A stretch of DNA of 32,000 bases, taken from the NCBI GenBank assembly GCA_021732745.1, contig JAKFUK010000001.1, positions 42,931 through 74,930 of the forward strand. The letters are read 5' to 3'. Every line of letters starts with the position of its first letter. Position 1 is the first letter of the stretch. Below the pieces are notes generated by a model. The model was not told the DNA's origin and did no database searches. It was given only the letters and a program-made list of their open reading frames with translations. This document shows positions 9,263-30,799 of the stretch, one piece after another. Origin of the DNA: Nevskia sp. Its GTDB lineage: Bacteria; Pseudomonadota; Gammaproteobacteria; Nevskiales; Nevskiaceae. The translations under genes and the position numbers were made by a program.

Positions 9263-9276
9263 TTCGCAAGCGCTCT

Positions 9277-11402: not shown

Positions 11403-11542
11403 TTGTCCCCTCCTCGGATTCATCTGCGTCTATCCATGGCGATGCCGACCGGCGCGCGGGACTCGCGACACCGTAATCGGCACCGTCATGGACGACAGCG
11501 TTTTGTTTTTCGGTATCGCGACCCGCGATGCGAAGTGGCGAC

Positions 11543-12337: not shown

Positions 12338-12570
12338 GCTTTGTCTCCTGATCAGCGGGGGGAAATCTGGCAGAAACCGGCCGGGTGCAAGGCGCAGCCT
12401 TTGGGAGCCGGGCGCAGGTCTTGTTGACGGCAAAGGCTAGTCGGGGCCGCAGTGACGCCGCGCGCGATGCTCTCCCGCGAATGGACCGACCGATGGATCG
12501 ATTCCGTCATTTTTTTGCTCCTCGCCGCGAGCCCCGTAAACGGGGTCTGTCGAGCTGACTAGAATCCATA

Positions 12571-12586: not shown

Positions 12587-12729
12587 CAGAACGCTGACGA
12601 ATGACATTCGGCCGTGCAGCAGTCCCGTTATCAGCCTGCTGGGACCGAATACCCGCCGCGCGCCGCCGCAGCCCGGACAGATCGCCGCGGGACGGGGGCG
12701 CCGGCTCGCGCACTGCTATCGTGTACCCG

Positions 12730-14639: not shown

Positions 14640-15128
14640 CTAGGGACGGGCCACCTGCGGCTTCTTGCCCCGGCGATAGACCAGCAGCGTGCGGCGAAAC
14701 GAAATCACCAGCACGCCGTTCTGGTTGTGACCCTCGGTGCGCACCGTGACCACGCCGACGTCCGGCCGCGAGCGTGACTCGCGCGTCTCCAGCACCTCGG
14801 AGCGCGAGTAGAGCGTGTCACCCTCGAATACCGGGTTCGGCAGCCGCACCTCGTCCCAGCCCAGGTTCGCGAACACGTTCTGTGAAACGTCGGTGACGCT
14901 CTGGCCGGTGACGAGCGCCAGCGTCAGACAGGAATTGATCAGCGGGCGCCTGAACTCGGTCTGCGCGGCGTAGTGCTGGTCGAAGTGCAGCGGCGCGGTG
15001 TTCTGCGTCATCAGCGTGAACGAGATGTTGTCGTTCTGCGTCAGCGTGCGGCCCAGCGGATGGGGGTAGACATCGCCCACCTCGAAATCCTCGAAAAAGC
15101 GTCCTTCCCAGCCGGTCTTGACCGCCAT
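14640..15128 (-). CDS. MaoC-like (R)-specific enoyl-CoA hydratase/dehydratase
   Basis: 162 aa, single hot-dog domain. FEDFEVGDVYPHPLGRTLTQNDNISFTLMTQNTAPLHFD...GDTLYSRSEVLETRESRSRPDVGVVTVRTEGHNQNG. Upstream of gcdH on the same strand. Confidence 0.8.
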   Translation of the reverse strand: MAVKTGWEGRFFEDFEVGDVYPHPLGRTLTQNDNISFTLMTQNTAPLHFDQHYAAQTEFRRPLINSCLTLALVTGQSVTDVSQNVFANLGWDEVRLPNPVFEGDTLYSRSEVLETRESRSRPDVGVVTVRTEGHNQNGVLVISFRRTLLVYRRGKKPQVARP

Positions 15129-15285: not shown

Positions 15286-16551
15286 ATGGTCGACGCAAAC
15301 TGGCTGCACGGCATCCTGACGGATGTGCAGGCCAACTGGTTTCTCTACGCCTCCATGCCGCTGGTGGCCGCGGCCATCGGCTACGGCACCAAGATCGCGG
15401 CCATTCACATGATGTTCCAGCCGCTCAAGTTCGTCGGCATCCGGCCGCCCTACCTGGGCTGGCAGGGCATCATTCCGCGCAATGCGGCGCGTATGGCAAC
15501 CATCGCCTGCGACACGCTCACCTCGCGTCTGCTCAAGCCCGAAGAACTGTTCGACCGCCTCGACCCGTTGCGCGTGGCGATGGCCGTCGATCAGCCCCTG
15601 CGAGCGGCGGTCGAGGAAATCGTTCACGAAGTGTTCGAGCACTATTCGCCGGGCCTGTGGACCGCGGCGCCCGCCTCGATGAAGCGCACCATGATCCGGC
15701 GGGTCCAGGACAAGTCGCCGCAACTGATCGAGGACATCATGTCGAAGATCCGCGGCGACCTGAACTCGGTATTCGATCTCAAGGACATGGTGGTGAGCAA
15801 TCTTGTGAAGGACAAGGAACTGCTCAACCAGATGTTCCGCGAGGTGGGTCGCGGCGAATTCCGGTTCATCCGCAATTCCGGCATCTACTTCGGCTTCGTG
15901 ATCGGCTGCGTGCAGGCGCTGGCCTGGGCGTTGACGCACTCGATGTGGATCATGCCGCTGTTCGGCGGACTCACCGGCTGGCTCAGCGACTGGCTGGCGC
16001 TGAAAATGGTCTTCCGGCCCAAGGAGCCCACGCGCTACCTCGGCTTGTTCACCTGGCAGGGGCTGTTCATCAAGCGCCGCCAGCAGGTGGCCTCGGAGTA
16101 CGGCCGGCTCATGGCGCAGCGCGTGCTCACGCCCAGCGCCGTCATGGCCTCTATCCTGCGCGGCCCGCTGTCCGACCGCCTGTACACGATGATCCAGAAC
16201 GAGGTCCGCGCCGCGATCGACGAGCAGGCGGGATTCGCGCGGCCACTGGTGGTGCTGTCGGTGGGAGGCGACAAGTACCTGGAGATGAAGCGCCTGGTCG
16301 CGGGCAAGATCGTGGAACGCCTGCCCGAGGCCATGCGCCACGTCGAGGCCTACGCATTCGAGGCGCTCGACATCGAGAACACGCTCAAGACCAAGATGGC
16401 GCAACTCACGGTCGACGAGTATGAGGGCCTGCTCCGTCCGGCCTTCCAGCAGGACGAGTGGATCCTGATCGCGGTGGGTGCCGCCTTGGGCTTCCTGGTC
16501 GGCGAGATGCAGGTCCACGTGATGCTTGCCTTTGCCGTGAATCCACAATGA
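15286..16551 (+). CDS. DUF445-like integral membrane protein of unknown function
   Basis: 421 aa, with a strong SD (GGGGGAGAG) upstream. N-terminal TM plus AAAIGYGTKIAAIHMMFQPLKFVG...GWQGIIPRNAARMA, and C-terminal DEWILIAVGAALGFLVGEMQ. This resembles the DUF445 (YheB/YjiN) pattern, recalled from memory only. Confidence 0.6.
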   Translation: MVDANWLHGILTDVQANWFLYASMPLVAAAIGYGTKIAAIHMMFQPLKFVGIRPPYLGWQGIIPRNAARMATIACDTLTSRLLKPEELFDRLDPLRVAMAVDQPLRAAVEEIVHEVFEHYSPGLWTAAPASMKRTMIRRVQDKSPQLIEDIMSKIRGDLNSVFDLKDMVVSNLVKDKELLNQMFREVGRGEFRFIRNSGIYFGFVIGCVQALAWALTHSMWIMPLFGGLTGWLSDWLALKMVFRPKEPTRYLGLFTWQGLFIKRRQQVASEYGRLMAQRVLTPSAVMASILRGPLSDRLYTMIQNEVRAAIDEQAGFARPLVVLSVGGDKYLEMKRLVAGKIVERLPEAMRHVEAYAFEALDIENTLKTKMAQLTVDEYEGLLRPAFQQDEWILIAVGAALGFLVGEMQVHVMLAFAVNPQ

Positions 16552-16618
16552 CAGCTGCCGAATACACAATGCGAAACGATTCTGACTGCACCGCGCGATG
16601 CGCGGTGGGAGAACCATC

Positions 16619-18076
16619 ATGACGGATACCCGAGCCTTCAACTCCGCCGACCTGCACTCACTCGAGGGCTGGGGCGGCGGACCGGAGATGAGTCACTTCG
16701 AAGGCGTGATGTGGCGCCTGGACGTCAACCCGCACATGCGTTCGACCATGACCGGGGTGGAGATCCTCGACCACGCGCCGGACTGGCAGCGTCTGCGCGC
16801 CGCCCACGAGCGCCTCACGGCGTCGATTCCGCGCTTCAGGCAGCGCGTGGTGGAACCCCTGTTCGGTCTGGGCACGCCGCACTGGGTGGATGACCCGGAC
16901 TTTTCGCTCGACTACCACCTGCGCCGCCTGCGCGTGCCGGAACCGGCCACGCCGCGTCAGTTGCTGGAACAGGCGCAGTGGATCGCGATGACGCCCTTCG
17001 ACCGCGCCCGCCCGCCGTGGGAGGTGATCCTGATCGAGGGCCTGGCCGACGGCCGCGCGGCCTACGTGCTGAAAATGCACCACGCCCTGTCCGACGGCCA
17101 CGGCATGATGCAGTTGCTCTCGCAGGCACACAGCCACAGCGCCCAACCAGGACCGCCGGTGGAACAGCCGGCGCGCCAGCCCGCCGCCCCGCTGCCCTCC
17201 ACCGGTGCGGTGCTGGGGCGGCAAGTGCGCGCAGGCCTGTCGCGACTGCCGCAGCAGACGCGCAAGCTGGTCGCCGACGTGGCGCAGGGCCTGCAGCGTC
17301 CTGACGCGGCGCGCGAGGCACTGCGATATGTGCAGTCAGCAGCGCGCATCCTCGGCCGCAAGCCGGCACCCAAGTCGCCGCTGATCGCCGGCCGCAGCCT
17401 GTCATGGCATTTCGACGCGCTGGATTTTCCGCTGGACGATTTCAAGGCCGCCGCCAAGCGTGCCGGTGCCAGCCTCAACGATGCCTACATCGCCGGTATC
17501 GCCGGCGGGTTCCGGCGCTATCACGAGCAACTCGGCCAGCCCATCGCCAAGTTGCCCATCGTGTTCCCCGTCAGCGTACGCACCGCGGCGGACGGCCTCG
17601 GCGGCAACCGTTTCGTCGGTGGCCAATTCGACGCGCCGCTGGACGAACCCGATCCGGTCGCCTGCATGAAGACGGTCGGCGCGTTCGTGGAGACACTGCG
17701 CGCGGAGCCGGCGCTCGACGTGCTGTTGCGCGTGATGCCGATTGTCGGCCGCCTGCCCACGCCGCTGCTCGGCAAGATGATGTCCGGCGTCACTGCCGCC
17801 CAGGACGTGCAGGCCACCAACGTGCCGGGGCTGCGCCGCCCGGTGTACATCGCCGGTGCGAGAGTCACCCACTTCTTCGGCTTCGGTCCCCTGCCCGGCT
17901 GCGCCGCCATGTTCGCGATGCTCTCGCACGACCAGCGCTGCTGCATCGGCATCAACACCGACGCCGCCGCCGTGCGCGAGCCGGATCGCCTGGTGGAATG
18001 CCTGCGCCTGAGCTTCGACGAGATCATGGGCATTCCCGGAATCACCGAGGTCTTCGCCGGGCCGGGCAAGCCGTAG
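16619..18076 (+). CDS. Wax ester synthase / diacylglycerol O-acyltransferase (WS/DGAT) family
   Basis: 485 aa counted from MTDTRAF, with a GGGAGA SD 8 nt upstream. Catalytic HHxxxDG motif as MHHALSDGHG. Conserved PLNRARPPW-like segment TPFDRARPPWEVILIEGL and C-terminal NVPG motif (QATNVPGLRRPVYIAG). Confidence 0.85.
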   Translation: MTDTRAFNSADLHSLEGWGGGPEMSHFEGVMWRLDVNPHMRSTMTGVEILDHAPDWQRLRAAHERLTASIPRFRQRVVEPLFGLGTPHWVDDPDFSLDYHLRRLRVPEPATPRQLLEQAQWIAMTPFDRARPPWEVILIEGLADGRAAYVLKMHHALSDGHGMMQLLSQAHSHSAQPGPPVEQPARQPAAPLPSTGAVLGRQVRAGLSRLPQQTRKLVADVAQGLQRPDAAREALRYVQSAARILGRKPAPKSPLIAGRSLSWHFDALDFPLDDFKAAAKRAGASLNDAYIAGIAGGFRRYHEQLGQPIAKLPIVFPVSVRTAADGLGGNRFVGGQFDAPLDEPDPVACMKTVGAFVETLRAEPALDVLLRVMPIVGRLPTPLLGKMMSGVTAAQDVQATNVPGLRRPVYIAGARVTHFFGFGPLPGCAAMFAMLSHDQRCCIGINTDAAAVREPDRLVECLRLSFDEIMGIPGITEVFAGPGKP

Positions 18077-18259: not shown

Positions 18260-19723
18260 ATGATCGGCATCACCTGTTACGGCGCCTATGTGCCAAGACT
18301 GCGGCTCAGCCGTGCCGCGGCGGCCCAGGCCAACGCATGGGCCAATCCGGGCCTGCTCGCCCAGGCGCGCGGCGAGCGCTCGATGGCCAACTGGGACGAG
18401 GACAGCCTGACGATGGCGGTGGAAGCCGCACGCGACGCGCTGGCCGGCCGCAACACGGACGGCATCGGCGCCCTCTACTTCGGCTCCACCACGCATCCCT
18501 TCGCCGACCGCCAGAACGCGGGCCTGGTCGCCTCCGCGCTCGACCTGCCGGAATCGATCAGTTCCTCCGACTTCGGCGGCGCGCAGAAGGCCGGCACCGC
18601 CGCGCTGATCGCAGCACTCGACCGCGCGACGGCCGGACGCCCGGGCGAGGCCCTGGTGGTGGCCGCCGAACATCGCCGGGCGCGTCCCGGCAGCGCCCAG
18701 GAGTTGCAGTACGGCGATGCCGCCGCTGCCTTCACGATCGGCAATTCCGCAGTGATTGCCGAGTTCCTCGGCAGCCACAGCGTGTCGGTGGATTTCGTCG
18801 ATCATTACCGCGCGACGGGCCAGGAATTCGATTACATCTGGGAAGAGCGCTGGCTGCGCGACGAGGCGTTCCAGAAGTGGGTGCCGGCCGCGGTGACAGC
18901 CGGGCTGGAAAAAATTGGGATCGCCCCCGGCAGCATCCATCACTTCGTGCTGGCCGAGCCGGTCGCCAAGCTCTCCGCGCTGGTCGCCAAGCGTTGCGGC
19001 ATCACCGAGACCGCCATCGCCGACAGCCTGCTCGGCGTGGTCGGACATGCCGGCTCGGCGCACGCCCCGCTGATGCTTGCCGCGGCACTGCAGAAGGCGC
19101 AAGCCGGACAGACCATCGTGGTCGTCGGCTTTGGCCAGGGTTGCGACGTGCTGGCCTTCCGCACCACCGCCGCGCTGGGCGAACTGCCCGCGCGCAGCGG
19201 CGTCGCCGGCAGTCTCAAGCGCCGCAAGGAAGAAAAGAATTACCCGAAGTTCCAGTCCTTCAACGAGACCGTCTCGCCGGAAAAAGGTCTGCGCGGCGAA
19301 GCCAATCCGCAGACCGCGCTGTCGGCGATGTACCGCAACCGCCGCATGCTGTCCGGGCTGGTCGGGGGCAGTTGCACGAAGTGCGGCACCGCGCAGTTCC
19401 CGCCCGCCGACATCTGCGTCAATCCGTCCTGCCATCACCAGGGACCGATGCAGCCGTACCGCTTCGCCGACGAGGCGGGCCGCATCAAGACCTGGTCCGC
19501 GGACTGGCTCACCTACACGCCCGACCCGCCCGCGCACTACGGCATGGTGGAGTTCGAGCGCGGCGGTCGCTTCGTCGCCGACATCACCGACTGGGATCTC
19601 GGCAAGGTCGAGGTCGGACAGCCGGTCCGCATGGTGTTCCGCGTGCGCGGGCGCGATGCGCAACGCGGCATGGTTCGCTATTTCTGGAAGGCCGCGCCGC
19701 TGGCCGGCACGGGGGAGCACTGA
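18260..19723 (+). CDS. Fusion protein: an HMG-CoA synthase/KAS III-like domain (catalytic triad substituted) plus a C-terminal DUF35 zinc-ribbon/OB-fold domain
   Basis: 487 aa. The N-terminal part aligns by eye with HMGCS (GITCYGAYVPRLRL, NWDEDSLTMAVEAARDAL, GFGQGCDV). However it has GSTTHPF where GTES is expected, GGAQKAGTAAL where EACxGxTA is expected, and LAEPVAK where FHxPxxK is expected. The C-terminal part has CTKC...CVNPSC plus an OB-fold (YGMVEFERGGRFVADITD...VGQPVRMVF). Confidence 0.8.
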   Translation: MIGITCYGAYVPRLRLSRAAAAQANAWANPGLLAQARGERSMANWDEDSLTMAVEAARDALAGRNTDGIGALYFGSTTHPFADRQNAGLVASALDLPESISSSDFGGAQKAGTAALIAALDRATAGRPGEALVVAAEHRRARPGSAQELQYGDAAAAFTIGNSAVIAEFLGSHSVSVDFVDHYRATGQEFDYIWEERWLRDEAFQKWVPAAVTAGLEKIGIAPGSIHHFVLAEPVAKLSALVAKRCGITETAIADSLLGVVGHAGSAHAPLMLAAALQKAQAGQTIVVVGFGQGCDVLAFRTTAALGELPARSGVAGSLKRRKEEKNYPKFQSFNETVSPEKGLRGEANPQTALSAMYRNRRMLSGLVGGSCTKCGTAQFPPADICVNPSCHHQGPMQPYRFADEAGRIKTWSADWLTYTPDPPAHYGMVEFERGGRFVADITDWDLGKVEVGQPVRMVFRVRGRDAQRGMVRYFWKAAPLAGTGEH

Positions 19724-19724
19724 G

Positions 19725-20930
19725 ATGAGCAGCGGAATTCGCGACAAGGTCGCCATCCTGGGAATGGGCTGCTCGCGCTTCGGCGAGCGCTGGGACATGG
19801 GTGCCGAGGAACTGATGGTGGAGTCCTTCACCGAGGCTCTCACCGACGCCGGCATCGGCCGCGAGCAGGTTCAGGCCGCCTGGCTGGGCTCCTGCATGGA
19901 CGAGGTCAACATCGGCAAGTCGGCGCTGCCGGCCTCGATGGCCCTGCGCCTGAACAATATCCCGGTGACGCGAGTCGAGAACTACTGCGCCACCGGCACC
20001 GAGGCCTTTCGCGGCGCGGTGTATGCGGTGGCGTCCGGTGCCTGCGACATCGCGCTCGCCATCGGCGTGGAAAAACTCAAGGACACCGGCTACGGCGGAT
20101 TGCCGGGGCTGGATGTCGGCTCGATGCCGCCGCTGTGGTGGCCGAACCTGTCGGCACCCGGTGTGTTCGCACAGGTCGCGAGCGCCTACATGAACCGCTA
20201 CAAGGTGCCGCGCGATGTGCTCAAGCGCGCGCTCGCGGAAATTTCCGCCAAGAGCCACGCCAACGGCGCCAAGAACCCGAAGGCGCATCTGCGCAACCCG
20301 GTGAGCTGCGACACCATCATGGCCTCGCCGATGATCGCCGAGCCGCTGGGCCTGTTCGACTGCTGCGGCGTGTCCGACGGCTCGGCCGCGGCCATCGTCA
20401 CCACGCCGGAGATCGCCAGGTCGCTGGGCAAGCATCCCGACCAGATGGTCACGGTCAAGGCGCTGCAACTCGCGCTGTCGAATGGTTCCGAAGGCGGCTA
20501 CAACGACTGGGACGGCTCCTACATCCACACCACGCGCGTCGCCGCGAAGCGTGCTTACGCCGAAGCCGGCATCACCCGGCCGCGCGATGAAATCTCGATG
20601 TTCGAGGTTCACGACTGCTTCTCGATCACCGAACTGGTGACGATGGAGGACCTGTCACTGTCCTCCGATGGCGGCGCGATCAAGGACGTGATGGACGGCT
20701 TCTACAACGCCGACGGCAAGATTCCCTGCCAGATCGACGGCGGCCTCAAGTGCTTCGGCCATCCGATCGGCGCGTCCGGCATCCGGATGGTCTACGAGAT
20801 GTACCTGCAACTGCTCGGCCGCGCCGGCGAGCGTCAGCTCAAGAACCCGCGCTACGGCCTGACCCACAACCTCGGTGGCTTTCCGCACCAGAACGTCGTC
20901 GGCATTTCCATCGTCGGACGCTACCAATGA
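19725..20930 (+). CDS. SCP-x / archaeal-type thiolase (PhlC-like), with catalytic residues present
   Basis: 401 aa counted from MSSGIRDKVAILGMGCSRFGE, with a GGGGGAG SD upstream. Nucleophile Cys in VENYCATGTEAF, plus VHDCFS and KCFGHPIGASG. It starts 1 nt after the upstream stop. Confidence 0.85.
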   Translation: MSSGIRDKVAILGMGCSRFGERWDMGAEELMVESFTEALTDAGIGREQVQAAWLGSCMDEVNIGKSALPASMALRLNNIPVTRVENYCATGTEAFRGAVYAVASGACDIALAIGVEKLKDTGYGGLPGLDVGSMPPLWWPNLSAPGVFAQVASAYMNRYKVPRDVLKRALAEISAKSHANGAKNPKAHLRNPVSCDTIMASPMIAEPLGLFDCCGVSDGSAAAIVTTPEIARSLGKHPDQMVTVKALQLALSNGSEGGYNDWDGSYIHTTRVAAKRAYAEAGITRPRDEISMFEVHDCFSITELVTMEDLSLSSDGGAIKDVMDGFYNADGKIPCQIDGGLKCFGHPIGASGIRMVYEMYLQLLGRAGERQLKNPRYGLTHNLGGFPHQNVVGISIVGRYQ

Positions 20931-20964
20931 ATTTCATCTTTCAACTGCACCGGAAAACCTGCGC

Positions 20965-22143
20965 ATGAAACCACTCGCGGCCATTGTCGCCGTGTCCGAG
21001 ATGAAGCCCGGACGCTACCCGAACTACAACGGCATGGAGATGTACCGGCAGGTCATCTCGCAGTTCCTGCGCGAATGGCCGCAACTGCGGCCCTCGGATA
21101 TCGGTGGCCTGCTGTCAGCACCCGCCGGCATGGCCTCGGCCGACGGCACCGATGTGTTCGCGCACGAAAAGATCTCGGAAGAACTCGGCATCGAGCCGAC
21201 CTTCAGCGAGACCATCAATGCCGGCGGCGGCACCTACGCGCTGATGCTGATCCGCGCGTCCCTGGCCATCGAGCGCGGACTCTGCGATTCCGTGCTCTGC
21301 CTGGGTGCCGGGCGCTTCCCCAACGTGGGCAGCGGCATGGCCGAGATGATGAGCAAGCTGATCAGCCATCCCGAGTTCGAATATCCGTACGGCACCTATA
21401 TCCCGCCGATCTTCGCGCTCAACGCCACGCGCCACATGCACGAATTCGGCACCACGCGCGAGCAGCTCGCGCAGGTCGCGGTGTCGCAGCGCGAATGGTC
21501 GCTGCTGCATCCGGATGCGCTGATGGCCCCGCAGGGGCGGCTGACGATCGACAAGGTGCTGTCCTCGCGCCCGATCACCTACCCGTTCAATCTGCTCGAC
21601 TGCTCGGTGCCCAGCGAAGGCGGATCGGCGGTGCTGGTGGTGTCGCCGAAGATCGCCCAGCGCTACGCCAAGAAACCCTGCTTCCTGTATGGCTTCGGCG
21701 AGAAGCACACTCATTCCAGCATCAGCCAGGCGCATGACCTGACCACGCTCGGCTCCAGGGAAACCTCGGCGCAGGCCTACCGCATGGCCGGTGTCGGACC
21801 CAAGGACATGGACTTCGCCCAGCTCTACGACTCCTTCAGCATCAACCCGATCATCTACGCCGAAGATCTTGGCCTCTGCGCCAAGGGCCAGGGCGGCGCG
21901 TTCTTCGCCGGCGGCCGCACCGCGCCGGGCGGCGAATTCCCGGTCAATACCTATGGCGGGCTGATGTCCTTCGGCCACGTCGGCGATGCCTCCGGCCAGA
22001 CCATGATCGTGGAAGCGGCACGCCAGATCATGGGTATTGCCGGCGAAGCACGCCAGTTGAAGAAAGCCGATCTCGGCGTCGTTCACTGCTACGGCGGAAT
22101 GATGTCCGAGCACGCCACCCTCGTTCTCGGGAGCGCGTCATGA
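20965..22143 (+). CDS. Thiolase-like protein lacking the catalytic Cys/His residues; candidate non-thiolytic enzyme or scaffold
   Basis: 392 aa. Collinear with the preceding thiolase (GLCDSVLCLGAGR against GACDIALAIGVEK). However it has INAGGGTYA where NYCATGTEA stands, LYDSFS where VHDCFS stands, and MSFGHVGDASG where KCFGHPIGASG stands. Confidence 0.75.
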   Translation: MKPLAAIVAVSEMKPGRYPNYNGMEMYRQVISQFLREWPQLRPSDIGGLLSAPAGMASADGTDVFAHEKISEELGIEPTFSETINAGGGTYALMLIRASLAIERGLCDSVLCLGAGRFPNVGSGMAEMMSKLISHPEFEYPYGTYIPPIFALNATRHMHEFGTTREQLAQVAVSQREWSLLHPDALMAPQGRLTIDKVLSSRPITYPFNLLDCSVPSEGGSAVLVVSPKIAQRYAKKPCFLYGFGEKHTHSSISQAHDLTTLGSRETSAQAYRMAGVGPKDMDFAQLYDSFSINPIIYAEDLGLCAKGQGGAFFAGGRTAPGGEFPVNTYGGLMSFGHVGDASGQTMIVEAARQIMGIAGEARQLKKADLGVVHCYGGMMSEHATLVLGSAS

Positions 22144-22556
22144 GCAACCCCGCCGTCAACCCCAAGCCGATCCCCGAAATCAACGCCCACAGCAAGCCCT
22201 ACTGGGACGGCGCACAGCGCGGCGAGCTGATGATTCAGCGCTGCCGCGGCACCGGCAAGCCCTTCATGTACGCGCGCTGCTGGAGCCCCTTCGACTTCTC
22301 GCCCGACCCCATCTGGGAAAAGGCCAGCGGGCTGGGCACGGTGTTCAGCTACACCGTCGTGTACCAGCCGCCGTATGCGGCATTCAAGGCCGACTGCCCG
22401 TTCGTGATGGCCATCATCCAGCTCGACGAAGGTCCGCAGATGATGAGCAACGTCCTCAACTGCGATCCGGAATCCGTGCGCATCGGGATGAAGGTCAAGG
22501 TCTGCTTCGAGACCCGCAGCGGCGGCTTCAAGATTCCGCAGTTCGAACCGGCCTGA
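22140..22556 (+). CDS. DUF35 OB-fold (acyl-CoA-associated) protein with a degenerate zinc ribbon
   Basis: 138 aa. The start overlaps the upstream stop (ATGA). N-terminal SKPYWDGAQRGELMIQRC...ARC holds only two Cys instead of CxxC...CxxC. The OB-fold core is GTVFSYTVVYQP...FVMAIIQLDEGPQMMSNVL...GMKVKVCFE. Confidence 0.75.
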   Translation: MSNPAVNPKPIPEINAHSKPYWDGAQRGELMIQRCRGTGKPFMYARCWSPFDFSPDPIWEKASGLGTVFSYTVVYQPPYAAFKADCPFVMAIIQLDEGPQMMSNVLNCDPESVRIGMKVKVCFETRSGGFKIPQFEPA

Positions 22557-22578
22557 ATCCTTCAATAGCGAGCATCCC

Positions 22579-23721
22579 ATGAGCGAAGAATCCGTCGCTG
22601 CCGTCCGTGAAGCCGCCGAGGGGCTCACCCGCGGCATCTCGCGCGAATACTGGTTGCAGTGCGCGAAGGAAAAGAAGTTTCCGCAGAAACTCTGGGACGC
22701 GATGGCCGAAACCGGCCTTCTCGGTCTGACCGTGCCCGAGGAATACGGCGGCAGCGGCGGCGGCCTGTCCGAACTGATGGTGCTCAACGAGGTCACTGCC
22801 CGCGCCGGCGTCATCTCGCTGTTCTTCGTGCTCGGCAGCTTCGCGCGCATGCCGATCATCAAGCACGGCACACCGGCGCAGATCAGAAAATTCGTCACGC
22901 CCACCGCCACCGGCGAGGGCAAGATGTGCTTCGGCGTGACCGAGCCCAATGCCGGCACCAACACCTTCCGCCTGCAGACCACGGCCGCAAGGAACAGCGG
23001 CGGCTGGCTGGTCAACGGCTCCAAGGTGTTCATCACCGGCGCGAAGGAATCGACGTCGATGCTGCTGATCGCGCGCACCTCGGCGTTCGATCCGGCCAAG
23101 CCGCGCGGCGGGCTGTCGCTGTTCATCCTGGATTCGCACACGCCGGGCATCGAGTACCAGCGCCTGAACATCGAGGTGCTCGGCGAAAGCCAGTACCTGG
23201 TGTTCTTCAAGGATGCGCAGCTGCCGCAGGACGCGCTGATCGGCGAAGAAGGCAAGGGCATGAAGTACCTGTTCGACGGCCTCAACACCGAGCGCCTCGC
23301 GCTGGCCTCGATGGCCGTGGGCCTGGGCAATCGCGCGCTGGACAAGGCGGTGGCGTACTCGAAGGAGCGCTCGCCTTTTGGCACGCCCATTGGCAGCTAC
23401 CAGGGCCTGCAGCACCCCATGGCACGCGCCAAGGCGCATCTCGAAGCCTCGCGCCTGATGATGCTGGAAGCCGCCCGCACCTTTGATCGTGGGGAGGACG
23501 CCGGCCCGCTGTCGAACATGGCCAAGCTGCTCACCTCGGAGGCCTGTGACGAGGCGGTGGACATTGCGCTGCAGGTCCATGGCGGCTACGGCTTCGACCA
23601 GGATTACGACGTGGTCACGCTGTGGCCCTTCGCCCGCCTGATGCGCGTGGCGCCGGTCAACAACGAGATGATCCTCAACTACATCGGCGAGCACGTGCTC
23701 GGCCTGCCGCGCTCGTACTGA
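22579..23721 (+). CDS. Acyl-CoA dehydrogenase family protein; paralog of 3254-4417, lacking the canonical catalytic Glu
   Basis: 380 aa. FGVTEPNAGTNTF and GSKVFITG are present. The C-terminus is RLMRVAPVNNEMILNYIGEHVLGLPRSY, with Pro where the YEGT-type Glu is expected. Confidence 0.85.
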   Translation: MSEESVAAVREAAEGLTRGISREYWLQCAKEKKFPQKLWDAMAETGLLGLTVPEEYGGSGGGLSELMVLNEVTARAGVISLFFVLGSFARMPIIKHGTPAQIRKFVTPTATGEGKMCFGVTEPNAGTNTFRLQTTAARNSGGWLVNGSKVFITGAKESTSMLLIARTSAFDPAKPRGGLSLFILDSHTPGIEYQRLNIEVLGESQYLVFFKDAQLPQDALIGEEGKGMKYLFDGLNTERLALASMAVGLGNRALDKAVAYSKERSPFGTPIGSYQGLQHPMARAKAHLEASRLMMLEAARTFDRGEDAGPLSNMAKLLTSEACDEAVDIALQVHGGYGFDQDYDVVTLWPFARLMRVAPVNNEMILNYIGEHVLGLPRSY

Positions 23722-23750
23722 ACCACCTGCTCACTCGAACGATCCCCGTC

Positions 23751-24224
23751 ATGGCCAATGATCTGTCCGTCACCGTCGCGCCCTATCTGTTCAGGGAACG
23801 CTGGAACGAAAGCCCGTTCATGCAGGCCCAGGGGCTGACGGCCGAGGAGATCGCGCCCGGCGAGGTGGCGATTCACCTGCGCTCGCCCACGCTGGCCCAG
23901 CGCGGCGCGGGCGGGCCGCCGGACGCCATCAACGGCGGGGTGATTTCCTACATGTTCGACGGCGCGCTGGGCTATGCCATCGTCTCGGCACAGATCCCGC
24001 GCCTGGAGGCTGCAGGCCTGTCCCGGGCTGCCTATTCGCAGGTCACGATGAATCTCGACATCACCTACCTCGCGGCCGCGCAGGGCGGGTCGTTCAGCGC
24101 CGTCGGCAGGGTGTTGCGCGTCGGCCGCAGCACCGCCTTTGCGCAGGGCGAACTGCTCAACGGACGTGGCGAGGTCTGCGCCACCGCCAAGGGCATCTGG
24201 CGCGTGTTCTGGCCGCTGCAGTGA
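23751..24224 (+). CDS. PaaI/hot-dog fold thioesterase family protein
   Basis: 157 aa counted from MANDLSV. NGGVISYMFDGALGYAI and the C-terminal GRVLRVGRSTAFAQGELLNGRGEVCATAKG are typical of PaaI/YigI-type hot-dog thioesterases. Confidence 0.7.
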   Translation: MANDLSVTVAPYLFRERWNESPFMQAQGLTAEEIAPGEVAIHLRSPTLAQRGAGGPPDAINGGVISYMFDGALGYAIVSAQIPRLEAAGLSRAAYSQVTMNLDITYLAAAQGGSFSAVGRVLRVGRSTAFAQGELLNGRGEVCATAKGIWRVFWPLQ

Positions 24225-24255
24225 GCCGCCCACTTCTTCTTAACCGAATCCGAAC

Positions 24256-26036
24256 ATGAAACCTGCTTCCCTACGCATCGGCTGCGCCTCCGGCTTCTGG
24301 GGCGACACCGAGTACGCCGCCGCCCAGCTGGTGACCAGAGGCAACATCGATGTGCTGGTCTTCGACTACCTGGCCGAAGTCACCATGTCCCTGCTGATCC
24401 GGGTCAAGGCCAAGGATCCCAACGCCGGTTTTGCGCCGGACTTCGTGACCACGCTCAAGCCGCTGCTCAAGGAGATCAAGGCGCGCGGCATCAAGGTGGT
24501 GAGCAATGCCGGCGGCGTCAATCCCGCCGCCTGCCGCGAAGCGCTGGCCAGGGCGGCACAGGCCGAGGGCGTGGAGCTGAAGATCGCCGCCGTGCTGGGC
24601 GATGACCTGCTGCCGCAGACGGAAAGCGCACGCGGTGAAGGCACGCGCGAGATGTTCTCCGGCCAGGCGATGCCGGCAAGGATCATGAGCGCCAATGCCT
24701 ATCTCGGTGCCTTCCCGATCGCCGCCGCGCTGGAAGCCGGCGCGGACATCGTCGTGACCGGCCGCTGTGTCGACAGCGCGGTGGTGCTCGGCCCATTGAT
24801 CCAGGCCTTCGGCTGGAAGCAGCACGACTACGATCAATTGGCCCAGGGCAGCCTGGCCGGCCACATCATCGAATGCGGCGCGCAGTGCACTGGCGGCAAC
24901 TACACCGACTGGCATCTGGTCAAGGGCTGGGACGACATGGGCTTCCCGATCGCCGACTGCTCGCCCGACGGCAGCTTCGTGATCGAAAAGCCCGCGGGCT
25001 CCGGCGGCCTGATCGTGCCGTCCACGGTGGGCGAGCAGATGGTCTACGAGATCGGCGATCCGCGCGCCTACCTGCTGCCCGACGTGAACTGCGACTTCAC
25101 CCAGGTGACGCTCGAACAGGTCGGCGAGCAGCGCGTGCGCGTCGCGGGTGCCAGGGGCAGCGCACCCACGCCACACTGCAAGGTCAGCGCGACCTATCTC
25201 GACGGCTTCCGCGCCACCGCCATGTTCATGATCGGCGGCATCGACGCCTCGACCAAGGGCACGCGCACCGCCGAGGCGCTGCTCGCGCGCTGCCGGCGTC
25301 TGTTCGCCGAGCGCAGCCTGGGAGACTTCAGCGAAACGAGCATCGAGGTCCTTGGTGCCGAAGCGACCTACGGCCCGCATGCGCGGGTGCAGCCGCGCGA
25401 GGTAATGGTGAAGATCGGCGCGCGTCACCCGAACAAGGATGCGCTGGACATCTTCTCCCGCGAGATGGCGCCGATGGCGCTGGCCACCTCCCCCGGCATC
25501 ACCGGCTTCCTCGGCGGCCGTCCCAAGGTGCAGCCGGTGGTGCGCCTGTTCTCCTACCTGTGGCCGAAATCGATGATCCCGGTGCGCCTGGAACTCGATG
25601 GCCAGGACCTGGCCTGCCCGCAGATGAGCGGCCTGCCTTTCGATCCCGCAAAGCTCCCCGACATCGGTGGACCGCTACCGGCAGCCGCGGCGTTCGCCGA
25701 TGGCACGCGCCTGGTGCCGCTGGTGCAGCTCGCCTACGGCCGCAGCGGCGACAAGGGCGACTCCGCGAACATCGGCATCCTCGCGCGCAAGGCCGACTAC
25801 CTGCCCTACATCCGCGCGGCGCTGACGGCTGATGCGGTCGCGAAATGGTTTGCCCACCGCGCCGAAGGGCCGGTGCATCGCTGGGACATGCCCGGTGTCC
25901 TGGGCCTGAATTTCCTGCTGGAAAAAGCGCTCGGCGGCGGCGGCATGGCCTCGATCCGCATTGATCCCCAGGGCAAGGCCTACGCGCAGATGCTGCTCGA
26001 CTTCCCCGTTCCCGTGCCTGCCGGGCTTGTGACCGA

Positions 26037-26040
<4 letters not shown>
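24256..26040 (+). CDS. DUF1446 / AtuA-like (acyclic terpene utilisation A family) protein
   Basis: 594 aa. The N-terminus is LRIGCASGFWGDTEYAAAQLVTRGNIDVLVFDYLAEVTMSLL, and the length of roughly 590 aa matches my recollection of AtuA-type proteins. Confidence 0.75.
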
Positions 26041-27518
<1,478 letters not shown>

Positions 27519-27528
27519 ACAATCGACC

Positions 27529-28035
27529 ATGAAAAAAATTCTAGCCATCGACGGCGAGCAGTACGCCTGCACGCTGACACGCACACCCGGCAGCCTGCGC
27601 CTGCAGGCCGGCGAACGCAGCTTCGACTGCGCGCTCGACGCGCTCGGCGACGGCCGCTACCGCGTGCGCGCCGGCGATGCGCGGCGCGAAGCGCTGATTG
27701 CCCAGCACGGTGATCAGGTCTGGATCCACCTGGATGGCCGCACGCACACGATCCAGCGCATAAACCCGCTCGACCTCCTCGCCGCCAGCGGCCGCGGCGG
27801 CGCGGACAGCGCCCTGTCGCCGATGCCCGGCACCATCCTCACCGTGCAGGTGAAGGTCGGCGAGACGGTGAAATCCGGCCAGGTCCTGCTCACCATGGAA
27901 AGCATGAAACTGGAAGTGACCATCACTGCGCCGCACGACGGCGAGATCGCCGAAGTGCTGTGCGCACCCGGACAGAGCGTGCCGGTCAAGGCCACCCTGG
28001 TGCGCTTCGCGGCAAAGGCGGAGGCCACCTCATGA
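27529..28035 (+). CDS. BT-like domain plus biotin carboxyl carrier (biotinyl/lipoyl) domain protein
   Basis: 168 aa. C-terminal biotinyl domain PMPGTILTVQVKVGETVKSGQVLLTMESMKLEVTITAPHDGEI, with the candidate biotinyl-Lys codon at 27907-27909. No obvious SD. The first codons are AT-rich (atgaaaaaaattcta). Confidence 0.8.
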   Translation: MKKILAIDGEQYACTLTRTPGSLRLQAGERSFDCALDALGDGRYRVRAGDARREALIAQHGDQVWIHLDGRTHTIQRINPLDLLAASGRGGADSALSPMPGTILTVQVKVGETVKSGQVLLTMESMKLEVTITAPHDGEIAEVLCAPGQSVPVKATLVRFAAKAEATS

Positions 28036-29630
28036 TGCAGCGTATCGAAACGCGGATATCGCCGGCCTCGACCGCGTTCCGCGCCAACAGCGTGGCGATG
28101 CAGCGCATCTGCGGCGACTTCAAGGCCCTGCAGGAACGCATCCGTCACGAGCGCCCGCAACGCGACATCGAACGCCTGCGGCGGCAGAAGAAACTGCTGG
28201 TGCGCGAGCGGCTGGAATTGCTGCTCGACCCAGGCACGCCGTTTCTCGAACTCTCCAGCATCGCGGCCTACGATCAATTCAACGGCGAGGCGCCGGGCGC
28301 GAACGTCATCGCCGGCATCGGCGTGGTCGGCGGCCGCGAGGTGATGATCCACGCCGACGATTCCAGCAACAAGGGCGGCGCCTGGTATCTCTTGTCGGCG
28401 CCGAAGATCGTGCGCGCGCTGGAAATCGCCATCGAGAACCGCCTGCCCGTCGTACACCTCTGCGACAGTGCGGGCGGCTATCTGGAAGACCTCTCCGGCG
28501 TGTATGTGATGGGCGGCCGCGTGTTCCGTCACCAGTGCATCCTGTCGAAGATGGGCATTCCGCAGGTCGCCGTGGTGCTCGGACACTGCACCGCCGGTGG
28601 CGCCTACGTGCCCGCCCTGTGCGAACACACGATCATGGTGCGCGGCACCGGCGCGGTGTTTCTCGGCGGCCCGCCGCTGGTGAAGGCCGCGACCGGCGAG
28701 GAAGTCACGGTCGATGCGCTCGGCGGTGCCGACATGCATACCTCGGTGTCCGGCGTGGCGGACTACCCGGTGGACAGCGAGGAAGAAGGCATCGCGCTGG
28801 CCCGCGCCATCGTCTCCAGCTTCTCGCAGCCGAAGAAGCACTTCGACTGGGTGGATGCCGAGGCGCCCTACTACGATCCGCGCGAGCTGTACGGCATCGT
28901 TCCGGTGGACTACAAGACCCAGTTCGACATGCGCGAGGTGATCGCGCGCATGGTCGATGCCAGCCGCTTCCAGGAATACCAGCCGAACTACGGCACGACC
29001 CTGGTCTGCGGATGGGCGCGGCTGTGGGGCTGCAAGGTGGGCCTGCTCGGCAACAACGGCGTGCTGTTCTCCGACAGCTCGCTCAAGGCCGCGCACTTCA
29101 TCCAGCTCTGCAACCAGATGGGCACGCCGATGATCTTCCTGCAGAACACCACCGGCTACATGATCGGGCGCGAGTACGAGGAGCGCGGCATCACCAAGGA
29201 CGGTGCCAAGATGCTGATGGCACAGGCCGGCTCCGAAGTGCCCAAGCTCACCGTCGTCACCAGCGGCGCGTTCGGCGCCGGCTACTACGGCATGTGCGGC
29301 CGCTCCTGGGACCCGCGCATGATCTTCTCCTGGCCGCAGGCCAAGATGGGCGTGATGGGGCCGGAGCAGGCCGGCAACACGCTGGCCGACGTCAAGCTGC
29401 GCCAGTTGCGCCGTGATCGTCCCGAGGCCGGCGACGAGGAAGTGGCCGAGCTGCGCAAGCGCACGCGCGAGAAATCCGAGCGTGAGACCAGCACCCTGTG
29501 GTTCTCCGCGCGCTGCCAGGACGACGGCGTGCTCGATCCGCTCGATACGCGCAACGCGCTCGGCATCGCGCTGTCCTGCGCGGCCAACGTGCCGCTCGCC
29601 GAGCAGCGCTATGGCGTGTTCCGGATGTGA
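28032..29630 (+). CDS. Acyl-CoA carboxylase carboxyltransferase (beta) subunit, methylcrotonyl-/geranyl-CoA carboxylase type
   Basis: 532 aa counted from MMQRIETR. ATGA overlap with the BCCP stop, and a GGAGG SD upstream. KLLVRERLELLLDPGTPFLELS, GGREVMIHADDSSNKGGAW, HCTAGGAYVPALC and FLGGPPLVKAATGE are present. Confidence 0.9.
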   Translation: MMQRIETRISPASTAFRANSVAMQRICGDFKALQERIRHERPQRDIERLRRQKKLLVRERLELLLDPGTPFLELSSIAAYDQFNGEAPGANVIAGIGVVGGREVMIHADDSSNKGGAWYLLSAPKIVRALEIAIENRLPVVHLCDSAGGYLEDLSGVYVMGGRVFRHQCILSKMGIPQVAVVLGHCTAGGAYVPALCEHTIMVRGTGAVFLGGPPLVKAATGEEVTVDALGGADMHTSVSGVADYPVDSEEEGIALARAIVSSFSQPKKHFDWVDAEAPYYDPRELYGIVPVDYKTQFDMREVIARMVDASRFQEYQPNYGTTLVCGWARLWGCKVGLLGNNGVLFSDSSLKAAHFIQLCNQMGTPMIFLQNTTGYMIGREYEERGITKDGAKMLMAQAGSEVPKLTVVTSGAFGAGYYGMCGRSWDPRMIFSWPQAKMGVMGPEQAGNTLADVKLRQLRRDRPEAGDEEVAELRKRTREKSERETSTLWFSARCQDDGVLDPLDTRNALGIALSCAANVPLAEQRYGVFRM

Positions 29631-29635
29631 TTGAC

Positions 29636-30799
29636 ATGAACGACACTGCCTCCAGTGAAGACGATGCGCTGATCGACGCCATCGAGCGCTTCCTCGCGGG
29701 CGAGGTGCGGCCGGTGGCCATCGCCCTCGAACAGGCCGACGAATATCCGAAGGCCATCGTCGAGCAGATGCGCGACATGGGCCTGTTCGGCGCCATCATT
29801 CCCGAGGCCTATGGCGGACTGGGGCTCAGCGCGCAGACCTACGCGCGCCTGATCGAGACGATCGCGGCCGAGTGGATGTCGCTGTCCGGCATCATCAACT
29901 CGCACCTGATCATGGCTTCGGCGGTGCTGCGTTTCGGCACGGAAGCTCAGAAGGAATATTTTCTGCCCCGCTTCGCCAGGGCCGAGCTGCGCGGCGGCAT
30001 CGCGCTGACCGAGCCGGACTGCGGCACCGACCTGCAGGCCATCCGCACCGTCGCCCGCCGCGAAGGCGAGCACTACCTCGTCAACGGCGCCAAGACCTGG
30101 ATCACCAACGGGCTGCACGGCAACTGCTTCGCGCTGCTGGTCAAGACCGACCCCAAGGCCGACCCGCGCCACCGCGGCATGAGCCTGTTCATTGCCGAAA
30201 AAGGCCCCGGCTTCTCGGTGCCGCGCAAGCTGCCGAAACTGGGCTACCGCGGCATCGACACCGTGGAGATGCTGTTCCAGGACTACCGCATTCCGGCCGA
30301 GCGCCTGGTCGGCGGCGTCGAGGGCCGCGGACTGCAGCAGATTCTCGGCGGCCTGGAACTGGGCCGCATCAACGTCGCCGCGCGCGGGGTCGGCGTCGCG
30401 CGCTCGGCTTACGAGGAGGCGCTGAGTTATTCGCAGCAGCGCAAGACCTTCGGCAAGCCGATCTGCGAGCACCAGGCGATCCAGCTCAAGCTGGCCGACA
30501 TGGCCACGCGCGTGCAGGCCGCCCGGCTGCTGGTGGACTCCGCCGCCCGCGCCTACGACGCCGGACGGCGCTGCGATCTGGAGGCGGGCATGGCCAAGCT
30601 GTTCGCCACCGAAGCCGCGATGGAAAACGCCGCCGAATCTCTGCGCATCCACGGCGCCTACGGCTATTCGCGCGAAGTGCGGGTGGAACGGCTGTACCGG
30701 GACGCGCCCCTGCTGGCGATCGGCGAAGGCACCAATGAAATGCAGCGCCTGATCATCGCGCGCCGCCTGCTCGACGCGGCGGCCCCTCGCCAGCAATAG
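29636..30799 (+). CDS. Acyl-CoA dehydrogenase (canonical; isovaleryl-/citronellyl-CoA dehydrogenase-like)
   Basis: 387 aa counted from MNDTASSEDD. IALTEPDCGTDL and GAKTWITNG are present. The catalytic Glu is retained in PLLAIGEGTNEMQRLIIAR. Confidence 0.9.
   Translation: MNDTASSEDDALIDAIERFLAGEVRPVAIALEQADEYPKAIVEQMRDMGLFGAIIPEAYGGLGLSAQTYARLIETIAAEWMSLSGIINSHLIMASAVLRFGTEAQKEYFLPRFARAELRGGIALTEPDCGTDLQAIRTVARREGEHYLVNGAKTWITNGLHGNCFALLVKTDPKADPRHRGMSLFIAEKGPGFSVPRKLPKLGYRGIDTVEMLFQDYRIPAERLVGGVEGRGLQQILGGLELGRINVAARGVGVARSAYEEALSYSQQRKTFGKPICEHQAIQLKLADMATRVQAARLLVDSAARAYDAGRRCDLEAGMAKLFATEAAMENAAESLRIHGAYGYSREVRVERLYRDAPLLAIGEGTNEMQRLIIARRLLDAAAPRQQ

Follow-up and report, generated by a model that had tools for sequence, protein, structure and literature searches.

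The stretch of DNA analysed here, 32,000 nucleotides of contig JAKFUK010000001.1 from Nevskia sp. (hereafter, the window), carries on its forward strand a gene for a 392-amino-acid (aa) protein of the thiolase superfamily that is without the thiolase cysteines (20965–22143; hereafter, TLP, for thiolase-like protein). Its stop codon overlaps the start codon of a gene for a stand-alone DUF35 protein of 138 aa (22140–22556, forward strand) in an ATGA at 22140–22143, an overlap already reported in an earlier reading of this DNA made from the letters alone (the sequence-only reading) and readily seen in the sequence. That reading proposed that the two proteins form a retro-aldolase of the Ltp2 type or, failing that, a non-catalytic scaffold. 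We favour a related interpretation, in which the pair is a coenzyme A (CoA)-ester-dependent retro-aldolase acting on a tertiary 3-hydroxyacyl-CoA, and we put its probability at roughly 0.55. What the analysis shows directly is the fold of TLP, the ranking of its homologs, the conservation of its residues, and the synteny of the pair.

The pair sits within a tight block of co-directional genes (18260–30799, forward strand) that runs from a gene fusion with an HMG-CoA-synthase (HMGCS)-like domain to the last of several acyl-CoA dehydrogenase (ACAD) genes. Upstream of TLP, the HMG-CoA-synthase/KAS-III-like (PhlA-like) domain is fused to a DUF35 domain with a four-cysteine (C4) zinc ribbon (18260–19723, recognised by Pfam and NCBIfam), and an intact SCP2-type thiolase follows (19725–20930), with Cys88, HDC298F, and GH346P in place. 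Downstream of the DUF35 gene, the same strand encodes a 380-aa ACAD (22579–23721; Pfam ACAD domains), a hot-dog thioesterase of the 4HBT/PaaI type (23751–24224; Pfam 4HBT, 2.8e-09, and a gene call in an identical contig from a metagenome-assembled genome [MAG]), a 594-aa AtuA family protein (24256–26040; Pfam AtuA, 2.5e-149, plus AtuA_ferredoxin), a biotin carboxylase (26037–27518) and a biotin carboxyl carrier protein (27529–28035), both identified with Pfam, a carboxyltransferase of the methylcrotonyl-CoA/geranyl-CoA carboxylase (MCC/GCC) clade (28032–29630; Pfam and comparison with the PDB), and, at the end of the operon, a third ACAD of 387 aa (29636–30799; Pfam, NCBIfam). Upstream of the block, on the reverse strand, a 162-aa MaoC-type (R)-hydratase (14640–15128) is accompanied by another ACAD; it resembles RipB/Ich and mesaconyl-CoA hydratase (Pfam MC_hydratase, 4.2e-24, and MaoC, 6.9e-21; NCBIfam RipB_Ich, 6e-60, below cut-off).

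The thiolase-like protein and its relatives

TLP matches the Pfam profile Thiolase_C_1 (PF22691) at 8.5e-54, which places it in the thiolase superfamily, in the subclass that resembles SCP2 thiolases, and the end-to-end alignment with the adjacent thiolase described in the sequence-only reading is reproduced, at 27% identity. An AlphaFold2 (AF2) model of TLP has a predicted template modelling (TM) score of 0.87, and a Foldseek search with it gave TM-scores of 0.78–0.86 to thiolase-fold chains, with 4u4e, 9myr, and 6ok1 at 0.80–0.86. The closest PDB match is 4u4e (2.5e-74, 36% identity, TM 0.80/0.87). Among characterised proteins the closest is the aldolase CtSal (9myr_A; 5.4e-53, 33% identity, TM 0.86), and Ltp2 (6ok1_A) is more distant (3.7e-32, 25% identity, TM 0.80), at the far end of the range of 1.8e-36 to 3.7e-32 over which the Cys-bearing thiolases and Ltp2 itself are spread in the PDB sequence search. 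The structural comparison based on the AF2 model returns the same order as the sequence search, 4u4e before CtSal before Ltp2. Residues 120–142 and 332–340 of the model (window 21322–21390 and 21958–21984) have a predicted local distance difference test score (pLDDT) below 50; the first of these segments is the β4-α4 loop, which is likewise disordered in the CtSal crystal.

All 18 NCBIfam matches of TLP fall below their cut-offs, the best being PRK06158 (319.6 bits against a cut-off of 421), so that among the thiolase and ‘lipid-transfer protein’ models of that collection none is matched above its curated threshold. In the protein database, 896 of the candidates scored are relatives at E ≤ 1e-10; besides Gammaproteobacteria (above all Porticoccaceae), the groups represented include Actinobacteria (Mycobacterium, Prauserella, Amycolatopsis), Chloroflexi, Nitrospirae, and Binataceae. 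Their source names, where any are given, are ‘thiolase family protein’ or ‘acetyl-CoA acetyltransferase’, and plasmid homologs of the pair are annotated just as ‘thiolase family protein’ and ‘OB-fold domain-containing protein’. The TLP gene recurs at 94–99% identity in Polycyclovorans, Panacagrimonas, and Nevskia MAGs, and an identical TLP is present on many metagenome contigs; with so many identical or near-identical genes, TLP is not a chance open reading frame. TLP is a member of a large, widespread, and unnamed family whose hallmark is an invariant Y-D-[A/S]-F motif.

Active-site residues

Conservation was assessed in the 119 full-length sequences among the best 120 matches, all at least 52% identical to the TLP of the window; residues were mapped with a HMMER alignment of TLP to CtSal, and their roles were taken from the published account of that enzyme (PMC12329534). 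Where the neighboring thiolase carries its nucleophile, in NYC88ATGTEA, TLP reads INAGGGTYA (N85-A-G-G-G-T90), a stretch without Cys, as the sequence-only reading had said; the residue paired with Cys88 is Ala86 or Gly87, depending on the alignment. Gly87 and Gly88, which with Ala86 are encoded at 21220–21228, are invariant. The replacement of His-Asp-Cys by Tyr-Asp-Ser also holds: H296-D-C298-F of the neighbor aligns with Y288-D-S290-F of TLP (21826–21837), and all 119 homologs have the YD[A/S]F motif, with Ala in 90 and Ser in 29. TLP consequently lacks both marks of an active SCP2-type thiolase, the nucleophilic Cys and the acid/base Cys of HDCF.

Other parts of the original description need amending. 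Every sequence string that it quoted is present, and the C-terminal change from Cys to Ser is real (KCFGHP in the neighbor, MSFGHV in TLP), but that Cys does not qualify as a catalytic residue, the acid/base Cys of SCP2-type thiolases being the one in HDCF and not the one in KCFGH (PMC12329534). Nor is TLP ‘stripped of every catalytic Cys/His’, since it retains the histidine of the thiolase GH motif, His338 (21976–21978), as do all 119 homologs.

Much of what the known aldolases use is retained. Tyr288 occupies the position of the catalytic base, Tyr302 in Sal and Tyr294 in Ltp2, and is found in 119/119 sequences. Gly87/Gly88 correspond to Gly88/Gly89 of Sal, where the backbone of Gly89 contacts the β-hydroxyl (PMC12329534). 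Gly378 corresponds to the oxyanion-hole residue Gly391 of Sal (109/119), Arg17 to Lys19, which contacts the CoA 3′-phosphate (115/119), and Arg202 (21568–21570) to Arg216 at the CoA pyrophosphate (113/119); in Sal, the R216A substitution raises Km 5-fold (PMC12329534). Judged by these alignments, the base, the CoA site, and the oxyanion elements of the known aldolases are conserved in the TLP family, and their proton donors are not. The many further invariant polar residues of the family speak for an enzyme under selection. Peculiar to it, and candidates for the missing proton donor, are Tyr376 (22090–22092), His67-Glu68 (21163–21168), and Glu246/His248 (21700–21708). At the position of Tyr376, Sal and 4u4e have Thr, and the neighboring thiolase has Leu. 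His67-Glu68 falls, by alignment, at the end of the β2-α2 loop, a loop that forms part of the wall of the substrate pocket of Sal, next to the zinc finger of DUF35 (PMC12329534). Two further residues were considered and discarded: Ser290 as a catalytic residue, because it is Ala in 90 of 119 homologs, and Cys375 as a stand-in for the Cys of the classical CxG motif, because the position varies (T55/S38/C18/A8).

The DUF35 partner

The DUF35 protein matches the OB fold strongly (Pfam OB_ChsH2_C, PF01796, 3.3e-24) and the zinc ribbon weakly (zf-ChsH2, 1.6e-06); in the PDB, it matches the DUF35 domains of Shy (1.6e-19) and ChsH2 (2.6e-14). Its ribbon reads C35-R-G-T38 ... C47-W-S-P50, so that the second and fourth ligand positions are missing; compared with C4 relatives, the spacer is shorter by 2 residues. 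The earlier count of two retained cysteines is correct for the ribbon, but the protein has five in total. Likewise, the zinc-less state ascribed to this protein reflects a genuine loss of ligands, but one confined to the clade of the window plus a single further locus (L077). About 63 of 79 family DUF35 partners keep CxxC...CxxC; the degenerate ribbon, in which only Cys35 is conserved, occurs in all 15 loci whose TLP is at least 82% identical to that of the window (Nevskiaceae, Solimonas, Extensimonas) and in the one Salinisphaeraceae locus just mentioned. A residual two-ligand metal site made of Cys35 and Cys47 was rejected, given that relatives with a TLP 82–96% identical to the window's have P, L, R, or H at the position of Cys47. 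From this distribution, zinc loss is a lineage-specific trait and not a property of the TLP family. The zinc site of Sal is rearranged, which alters the shape of its substrate cleft (PMC12329534), and we speculate by analogy that the loss might tune the substrate pocket of TLP.

Three loci from the betaproteobacterium Extensimonas (Comamonadaceae; L017–L019) encode a TLP about 90% identical and a zinc-less DUF35 protein 77–78% identical to those of the window in a different context, where the pair adjoins a second thiolase-like gene with a C4 DUF35. The Extensimonas pair was probably acquired by lateral transfer.

Gene order across 80 loci

The proteins of the window, together with proteins from three distant operons, were compared with 80 loci by tblastn. 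A DUF35 gene directly follows TLP (+0.7 kb) in 79 of the 80, and in 52 a hot-dog hydratase pair or fusion comes after it, at +1.3/+1.8 kb, in most cases with an ACAD gene behind it. The pair comprises one FAS1_DH_region-type and one MaoC-type subunit, fused in some Actinobacteria into a 332-aa double hot-dog protein, and the order TLP, DUF35, hot-dog recurs in Proteobacteria, Actinobacteria, Nitrospirae, Chloroflexi, and Binataceae. An ACAD gene lies within a few kb of TLP at 60/80 loci. Relatives of the ACAD at 22579–23721 are found 2.6 kb downstream of TLP in loci of Nitrospirae, Binataceae, Chloroflexi, a deltaproteobacterial MAG, and Salinisphaeraceae (47–55% identity) and just upstream of it in Actinobacteria (39–41% identity); this enzyme would be the cognate dehydrogenase of the TLP module and would supply its 2-enoyl-CoA. 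In the clade of the window, which has no hot-dog pair beside TLP, the MaoC hydratase at 14640–15128 is a candidate supplier of the tertiary 3-hydroxyacyl-CoA, and hydratases of its type are co-located with TLP in 8 Nevskiaceae loci.

Individual operons are compact. One from Porticoccaceae encodes TLP, DUF35, hot-dog A, hot-dog B, and ACAD, then electron-transfer flavoprotein (ETF)-ubiquinone oxidoreductase and ETF; one from Dehalococcoidia encodes TLP, DUF35, ACAD, a 140-aa protein, and a crotonase. The four operons that were read gene by gene (Porticoccaceae, Dehalococcoidia, Prauserella, and Mycobacterium nebraskense) contain no 3-hydroxyacyl-CoA dehydrogenase. In its set of enzymes, the TLP module matches the igr operon (ChsE, ChsH, Ltp2) and Shy-Sal, systems that dehydrogenate, hydrate, and cleave rather than oxidise.

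The survey also bears on the scaffold proposal, according to which TLP is a pseudoenzyme that, with its DUF35 protein, scaffolds or regulates a complex of the neighboring thiolase and the HMGCS-like protein, as PhlA does in PhlACB. In the HMGCS-like domain (18260–19723) the catalytic Cys is replaced by Gln108 and the catalytic His by Ala, so it is dead as a synthase, like PhlA, and with its C4 DUF35 and the intact thiolase it looks like a complex of the PhlACB type or of the archaeal thiolase/HMGCS/DUF35 type. The cluster thus already holds one dead thiolase-superfamily domain beside an intact thiolase, the four genes lie close together, 6esq and 5m3k show DUF35 proteins as bridges between thiolase-fold and HMGCS-fold subunits, and the acid residue of the known aldolases is missing in TLP. 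Yet the thiolase and HMGCS-like genes stand upstream of TLP in only 10 of the 80 loci, against the 79 in which TLP and DUF35 stay together, and the thiolase is served by a DUF35 of its own, fused to the upstream gene; TLP and its partner are therefore a separate unit, and a role for TLP as partner of the adjacent thiolase was judged unlikely on the same two grounds. Moreover, Tyr288, His338, Gly87/88, Gly377, and Arg202 are invariant or nearly so across phyla, a degree of conservation that a scaffold would not need. The scaffold alternative raised in the sequence-only reading is weakened accordingly, and we regard it as quite improbable.

Proposed reaction

As a retro-aldolase, TLP would most likely join with DUF35 in a complex of the type known from Sal-Shy(DUF35) and Ltp2-ChsH2(DUF35), a central dimer flanked by two DUF35 subunits. 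An ACAD, here the product of the gene directly downstream, would make a β-branched 2-enoyl-CoA, to which a MaoC-type hydratase would add water; the resulting tertiary 3-hydroxyacyl-CoA could not be oxidised to a ketone, and TLP would cut it between C2 and C3 into acetyl-CoA (or a short acyl-CoA) and a ketone. Tyr288 of YD[A/S]F would deprotonate the β-hydroxyl, as its counterparts do in Sal and Ltp2; the oxyanion elements kept from thiolases, His338 and the backbone of Gly377/Gly378, would hold the thioester enolate; and the proton might come from Tyr376, from His338, or from water held by His67/Glu68 or Glu246/His248. The complex, its aldolase chemistry, the nature of the acid, and the substrate are all inferred.

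Several points weigh against this interpretation. The acid of Sal is absent, its Cys304 being matched by Ser290, a position held by Ala or Ser throughout the family, and the C304S, C304A, and C304H variants of Sal are all inactive (PMC12329534); a Sal-type mechanism was rejected for this reason. The acid of Ltp2, Tyr344, is absent as well, the corresponding residue (via Gln352 of Sal) being His338 in TLP and His in every homolog. With neither acid at hand, the mechanism of TLP must differ from both. Tyr376, present in 118 of 119 sequences, lies at or one residue beside the position of the classical CxG Cys, the alignment there being uncertain by one residue, and the AF2 model is unreliable in the loop that holds the invariant His338 (pLDDT below 50 at 332–340). 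Our literature search found no paper that cites the nearest structure, 4u4e, a structural-genomics entry without a publication. In the window an ACAD adjoins the pair but the cognate hot-dog pair is absent, and its single MaoC hydratase is encoded on the opposite strand, at a distance of 6 kb. With respect to the substrate, AtuA stands beside the TLP pair in just 15 of the 80 loci, 12 of them with a carboxyltransferase, and the window holds two rival candidate lyases for the carboxylase product, AtuA itself and a CitE/HpcH-like protein (6997–7791).

Of the original proposal of an Ltp2-type retro-aldolase, the reading as a C–C lyase is supported by the greater closeness of CtSal than of the Cys-bearing thiolases, the invariance of Tyr288, and the linkage to DUF35 in 79/80 loci. 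Membership in the Ltp2 type was rejected, the second catalytic Tyr and the His of YDHF being absent and the similarity no better than to true thiolases. Compared with Ltp2 in structure and active site, TLP has a TM-score of 0.80 and the same base Tyr, with Tyr344 replaced by His338 and His296 by Ser290. On the evidence of sequence and context, TLP is probably a thiolase-fold C–C lyase, and it represents an uncharacterised subfamily, neither Ltp2-type nor Sal-type and of different catalytic make-up.

An Atu-like operon and the candidate substrate

AtuA and an MCC/GCC-type carboxylase stand beside the TLP pair in two unrelated lineages, Nevskiaceae/Solimonas and Pseudonocardiaceae. The carboxyltransferase of the window is closest in the PDB to MCC β (3u9r_B, 3.2e-156) and human MCC β (1e-152), then to GCC β (5ikl_B, 5.3e-127), with true propionyl-CoA carboxylases at about 1e-67. 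Enzymes of the MCC/GCC type carboxylate the 3-methyl group of 2-enoyl-CoAs. The window accordingly contains the components by which an Atu cluster is recognised: AtuA, a γ-carboxylating MCC/GCC-type carboxylase, and an ACAD. No gene of the window encodes an HMG-CoA-lyase (HMGL-like) domain, and the TLP operon has no crotonase of the AtuE type, the nearest (7813–8643) belonging to another operon. The lyase step of the Pseudomonas Atu pathway has been assigned tentatively to AtuA (PMC4847356), and in a review to LiuE (PMC4097962). Given this inconsistency and the absence of an HMGL-type gene from the window, a non-orthologous lyase is plausible. We found no paper relevantly linking AtuA with DUF35; a retro-aldol step described in a paper on Ambrox proved unrelated.

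The TLP pair is embedded in this operon with the carboxylase and AtuA, so its substrate in the window is probably a 3-hydroxy-3-alkylglutaryl-CoA; provided that TLP is an aldolase, we hold this to be somewhat better than an even bet. The substrate would then be the hydrated, carboxylated product of a 3-methyl-branched (isoprenoid-type) enoyl-CoA and would be split into acetyl-CoA and a 3-oxoacid, which could be re-activated and then cleaved by the neighboring intact thiolase; genes for a CoA ligase and two CoA-transferases lie upstream. The pair has been recruited into a terpene-type (Atu-like) breakdown cluster of a hydrocarbon-degrading bacterium. AtuA and the carboxylase accompany a minority of the loci and cannot define the substrate of the TLP family; with AtuA in only 15 of the 80, and a carboxyltransferase in 12 of those, uncarboxylated tertiary alcohols must be the substrates of the family at large.

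In another division of labor, TLP would cleave an uncarboxylated tertiary alcohol (a 3-hydroxy-3-methylacyl-CoA or a (1-hydroxycycloalkyl)acetyl-CoA) to a methyl or cyclic ketone and acetyl-CoA, and AtuA or the CitE-like lyase would cut the 3-hydroxy-3-alkylglutaryl-CoA. Most family operons (TLP, DUF35, hot-dog pair, ACAD) have no carboxylase, and a paralogous cluster on one Nevskiaceae chromosome (L012) has an ACAD and the hot-dog pair where the carboxylase genes would be. CitE-like enzymes such as Rv2498c of M. tuberculosis cleave citramalyl-CoA and HMG-CoA, and (1-hydroxycyclohexan-1-yl)acetyl-CoA lyase, EC 4.1.3.35, is an orphan enzyme of just this type. Some authors do name AtuA as the lyase (PMC4847356), but that role is putative and the review cited above gives the step to LiuE (PMC4097962), and the TLP pair appears to share a single co-directional operon with AtuA and the carboxylase, an arrangement that recurs in Pseudonocardiaceae. 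We consider this alternative unlikely.

Two arrangements of these genes elsewhere may be recorded here. One Nevskiaceae chromosome (OZ244200.1; L012 and L013) has two paralogous thiolase/TLP/DUF35/ACAD/thioesterase/AtuA clusters, of which one continues with carboxylase genes and the other (L012) has an ACAD and the family hot-dog pair instead. At the Mycobacterium nebraskense locus (L090, 3862–5575) AtuA is split into two genes, one for a 463-aa AtuA domain and one for a 111-aa AtuA_ferredoxin domain, which are beside the hot-dog pair and divergent from ACAD-TLP-DUF35.

TLP might also act on an acyl-CoA by other chemistry, as a decarboxylase of a malonyl-type or carboxymethyl-branched CoA ester or in a hydrolase or isomerase reaction. 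Cys-less condensing-enzyme relatives of the KS-Q/CLF type use the oxyanion His and Gly for decarboxylation, TLP retains the thiolase oxyanion His338 and Gly, and a carboxylase is encoded in the same operon. TbSLP, which shares the fold (TM 0.81), slowly decarboxylates malonyl-CoA, but CtSal is without malonyl-CoA decarboxylase activity and the authors of that work argue that TbSLP is itself an aldolase (PMC12329534). Across the family a carboxyltransferase is present in 12 loci against 52 with a hydratase pair, which points to a hydrated and not a carboxylated substrate, and the invariant Tyr at the position of the Sal/Ltp2 base has no obvious role in decarboxylation. Such chemistry seems to us improbable.

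Taken together, these results allow a broader version of the retro-aldolase reading, which we put forward only tentatively, as a possibility less likely to be right than wrong. The YD[A/S]F family would be a third, independent thiolase-fold solution to the retro-aldol reaction, with Tyr288 as base and Tyr376 or a His338-activated water as acid, and, acting with a hot-dog hydratase and an ACAD, a general, non-steroid remover of β-branches, which would cleave tertiary 3-hydroxyacyl-CoAs that stem from isoprenoid, methyl-branched, or alicyclic acids; it would serve as the missing 3-hydroxy-3-alkylglutaryl-CoA lyase of Atu-like clusters and work with a zinc-free DUF35 in the Nevskiaceae clade. AtuA would then need another role.

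Other genes of the window

Between the MaoC hydratase gene and the thiolase genes, on the forward strand, lie a gene for a DUF445 membrane protein (15286–16551) and one for a wax-ester synthase/diacylglycerol acyltransferase (16598–18076), a combination typical of hydrocarbon-degrading, lipid-storing bacteria. Farther upstream, an operon on the forward strand (36–8643) encodes an acyl-CoA ligase, two family III CoA-transferases, a small hot-dog protein, an ACAD, an MmgE/PrpD-family protein, and, at its end, the CitE/HpcH-like C–C lyase (6997–7791) and the crotonase (7813–8643); it resembles operons for dicarboxylate catabolism of the itaconate or methylsuccinate type. Between the two acyl-CoA catabolic operons there is a copper membrane monooxygenase operon on the reverse strand (8675–12433; AmoC, AmoA, AmoB-like), whose 195-aa exported protein has no Pfam match, and a TetR regulator gene is located at 12601–13350.

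Implications

To our knowledge, steroid side-chain degradation is so far the sole source of thiolase-fold aldolases, for which two different catalytic pairs have been recognised. The TLP family is widespread in hydrocarbon-degrading and soil bacteria (Porticoccaceae, Nevskiaceae, Mycobacterium, Pseudonocardiaceae). If its members are aldolases, thiolase-fold aldol chemistry extends to non-steroid branched substrates, a gene can be offered for orphan lyase activities of the EC 4.1.3.26 and EC 4.1.3.35 types, and the finding bears on the role of AtuA in terpene degradation; the zinc site of DUF35 would also be shown to be dispensable. In practical terms, the gain would be a better annotation of the degradation of branched alkanes, isoprenoids, and naphthenic acids, as well as new biocatalysts for the formation of C–C bonds.

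Comparison with known systems

The nearest structure, the putative thiolase 4u4e of Sphaerobacter thermophilus, is like TLP in having YDSF, no nucleophilic Cys, and the DC and GH elements retained; it differs in the Thr at the position of Tyr376, in the absence of a His67-Glu68 pair from the alignment, and in having no partner in the crystal entry. CtSal-CtShy(DUF35), the bile-acid C5 side-chain aldolase of Comamonas testosteroni (9myr), shares with TLP a Gly in place of the nucleophile, the base Tyr in YDxx, the Arg that binds CoA, and the Gly of the oxyanion hole. It requires a DUF35 partner, whose zinc site is non-canonical, and its step comes immediately after that of a MaoC hydratase (PMC12329534). 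Its acid, however, is Cys304 in YDCY, where TLP has Ser or its relatives Ala, and its Gln347/Gln352 are Leu333/His338 in TLP. The DUF35 domain of Sal is fused to the hydratase Shy and binds zinc through Cys3His, whereas that of the window is stand-alone, with one conserved Cys and no His at the Shy position, and Sal belongs to a steroid cluster, unlike the TLP pair.

The cholesterol C3 side-chain aldolase TcLtp2-ChsH2(DUF35) (6ok1) resembles TLP in its lack of catalytic Cys and in the base Tyr at the same position (YDHF). Ltp2 is DUF35-dependent, and the tertiary 3-hydroxyacyl-CoA that it cleaves is produced by an ACAD together with a MaoC hydratase (PMC12329534). It differs from TLP in its acid (Tyr344 against His338) and at His296 (Ser290 in TLP), and at 25% identity it is as distant as true thiolases are; the DUF35 of Ltp2 forms part of ChsH2 and carries a C4 zinc site, while the stand-alone DUF35 of the window has lost the C4 site.

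The breakdown of C24-branched sterol side chains includes a carboxylation of the branch, which would match the logic proposed here for TLP. Ltp3/Ltp4 of Rhodococcus/Mycobacterium are cited as the aldol-lyases needed for these side chains (PMC6593523 citing Wilbrink 2012). Atf1-ChsH4 of Mycolicibacterium neoaurum is, like the TLP pair, an aldolase with a stand-alone DUF35 protein of 138 aa (PMC10398937). Both systems act on steroids and, as described in the literature, serve as precedents for the role proposed for TLP.

The Pseudomonas Atu/Liu pathway (AtuA, the geranyl-CoA carboxylase AtuC/F, AtuE, LiuE) shares AtuA, an MCC/GCC-clade carboxylase, and ACADs with the operon of the window. The Pseudomonas atu clusters consist of eight genes, atuA-H, with no thiolase-like or DUF35 gene (PMC4847356), both of which the window operon has; conversely, the latter has neither an HMGL-type lyase nor a crotonase within it. 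Finally, the SCP2-type thiolases that work with DUF35 (the archaeal thiolase/HMGCS/DUF35 complex, BbsAB, PhlACB) share with TLP the Thiolase_C_1 subclass and the pairing with a DUF35 protein, which in the case of TLP is a predicted partner. They keep the nucleophilic Cys and the Cys of HDCF, TLP has neither, and it is to this group that the neighboring thiolase (19725–20930) belongs.

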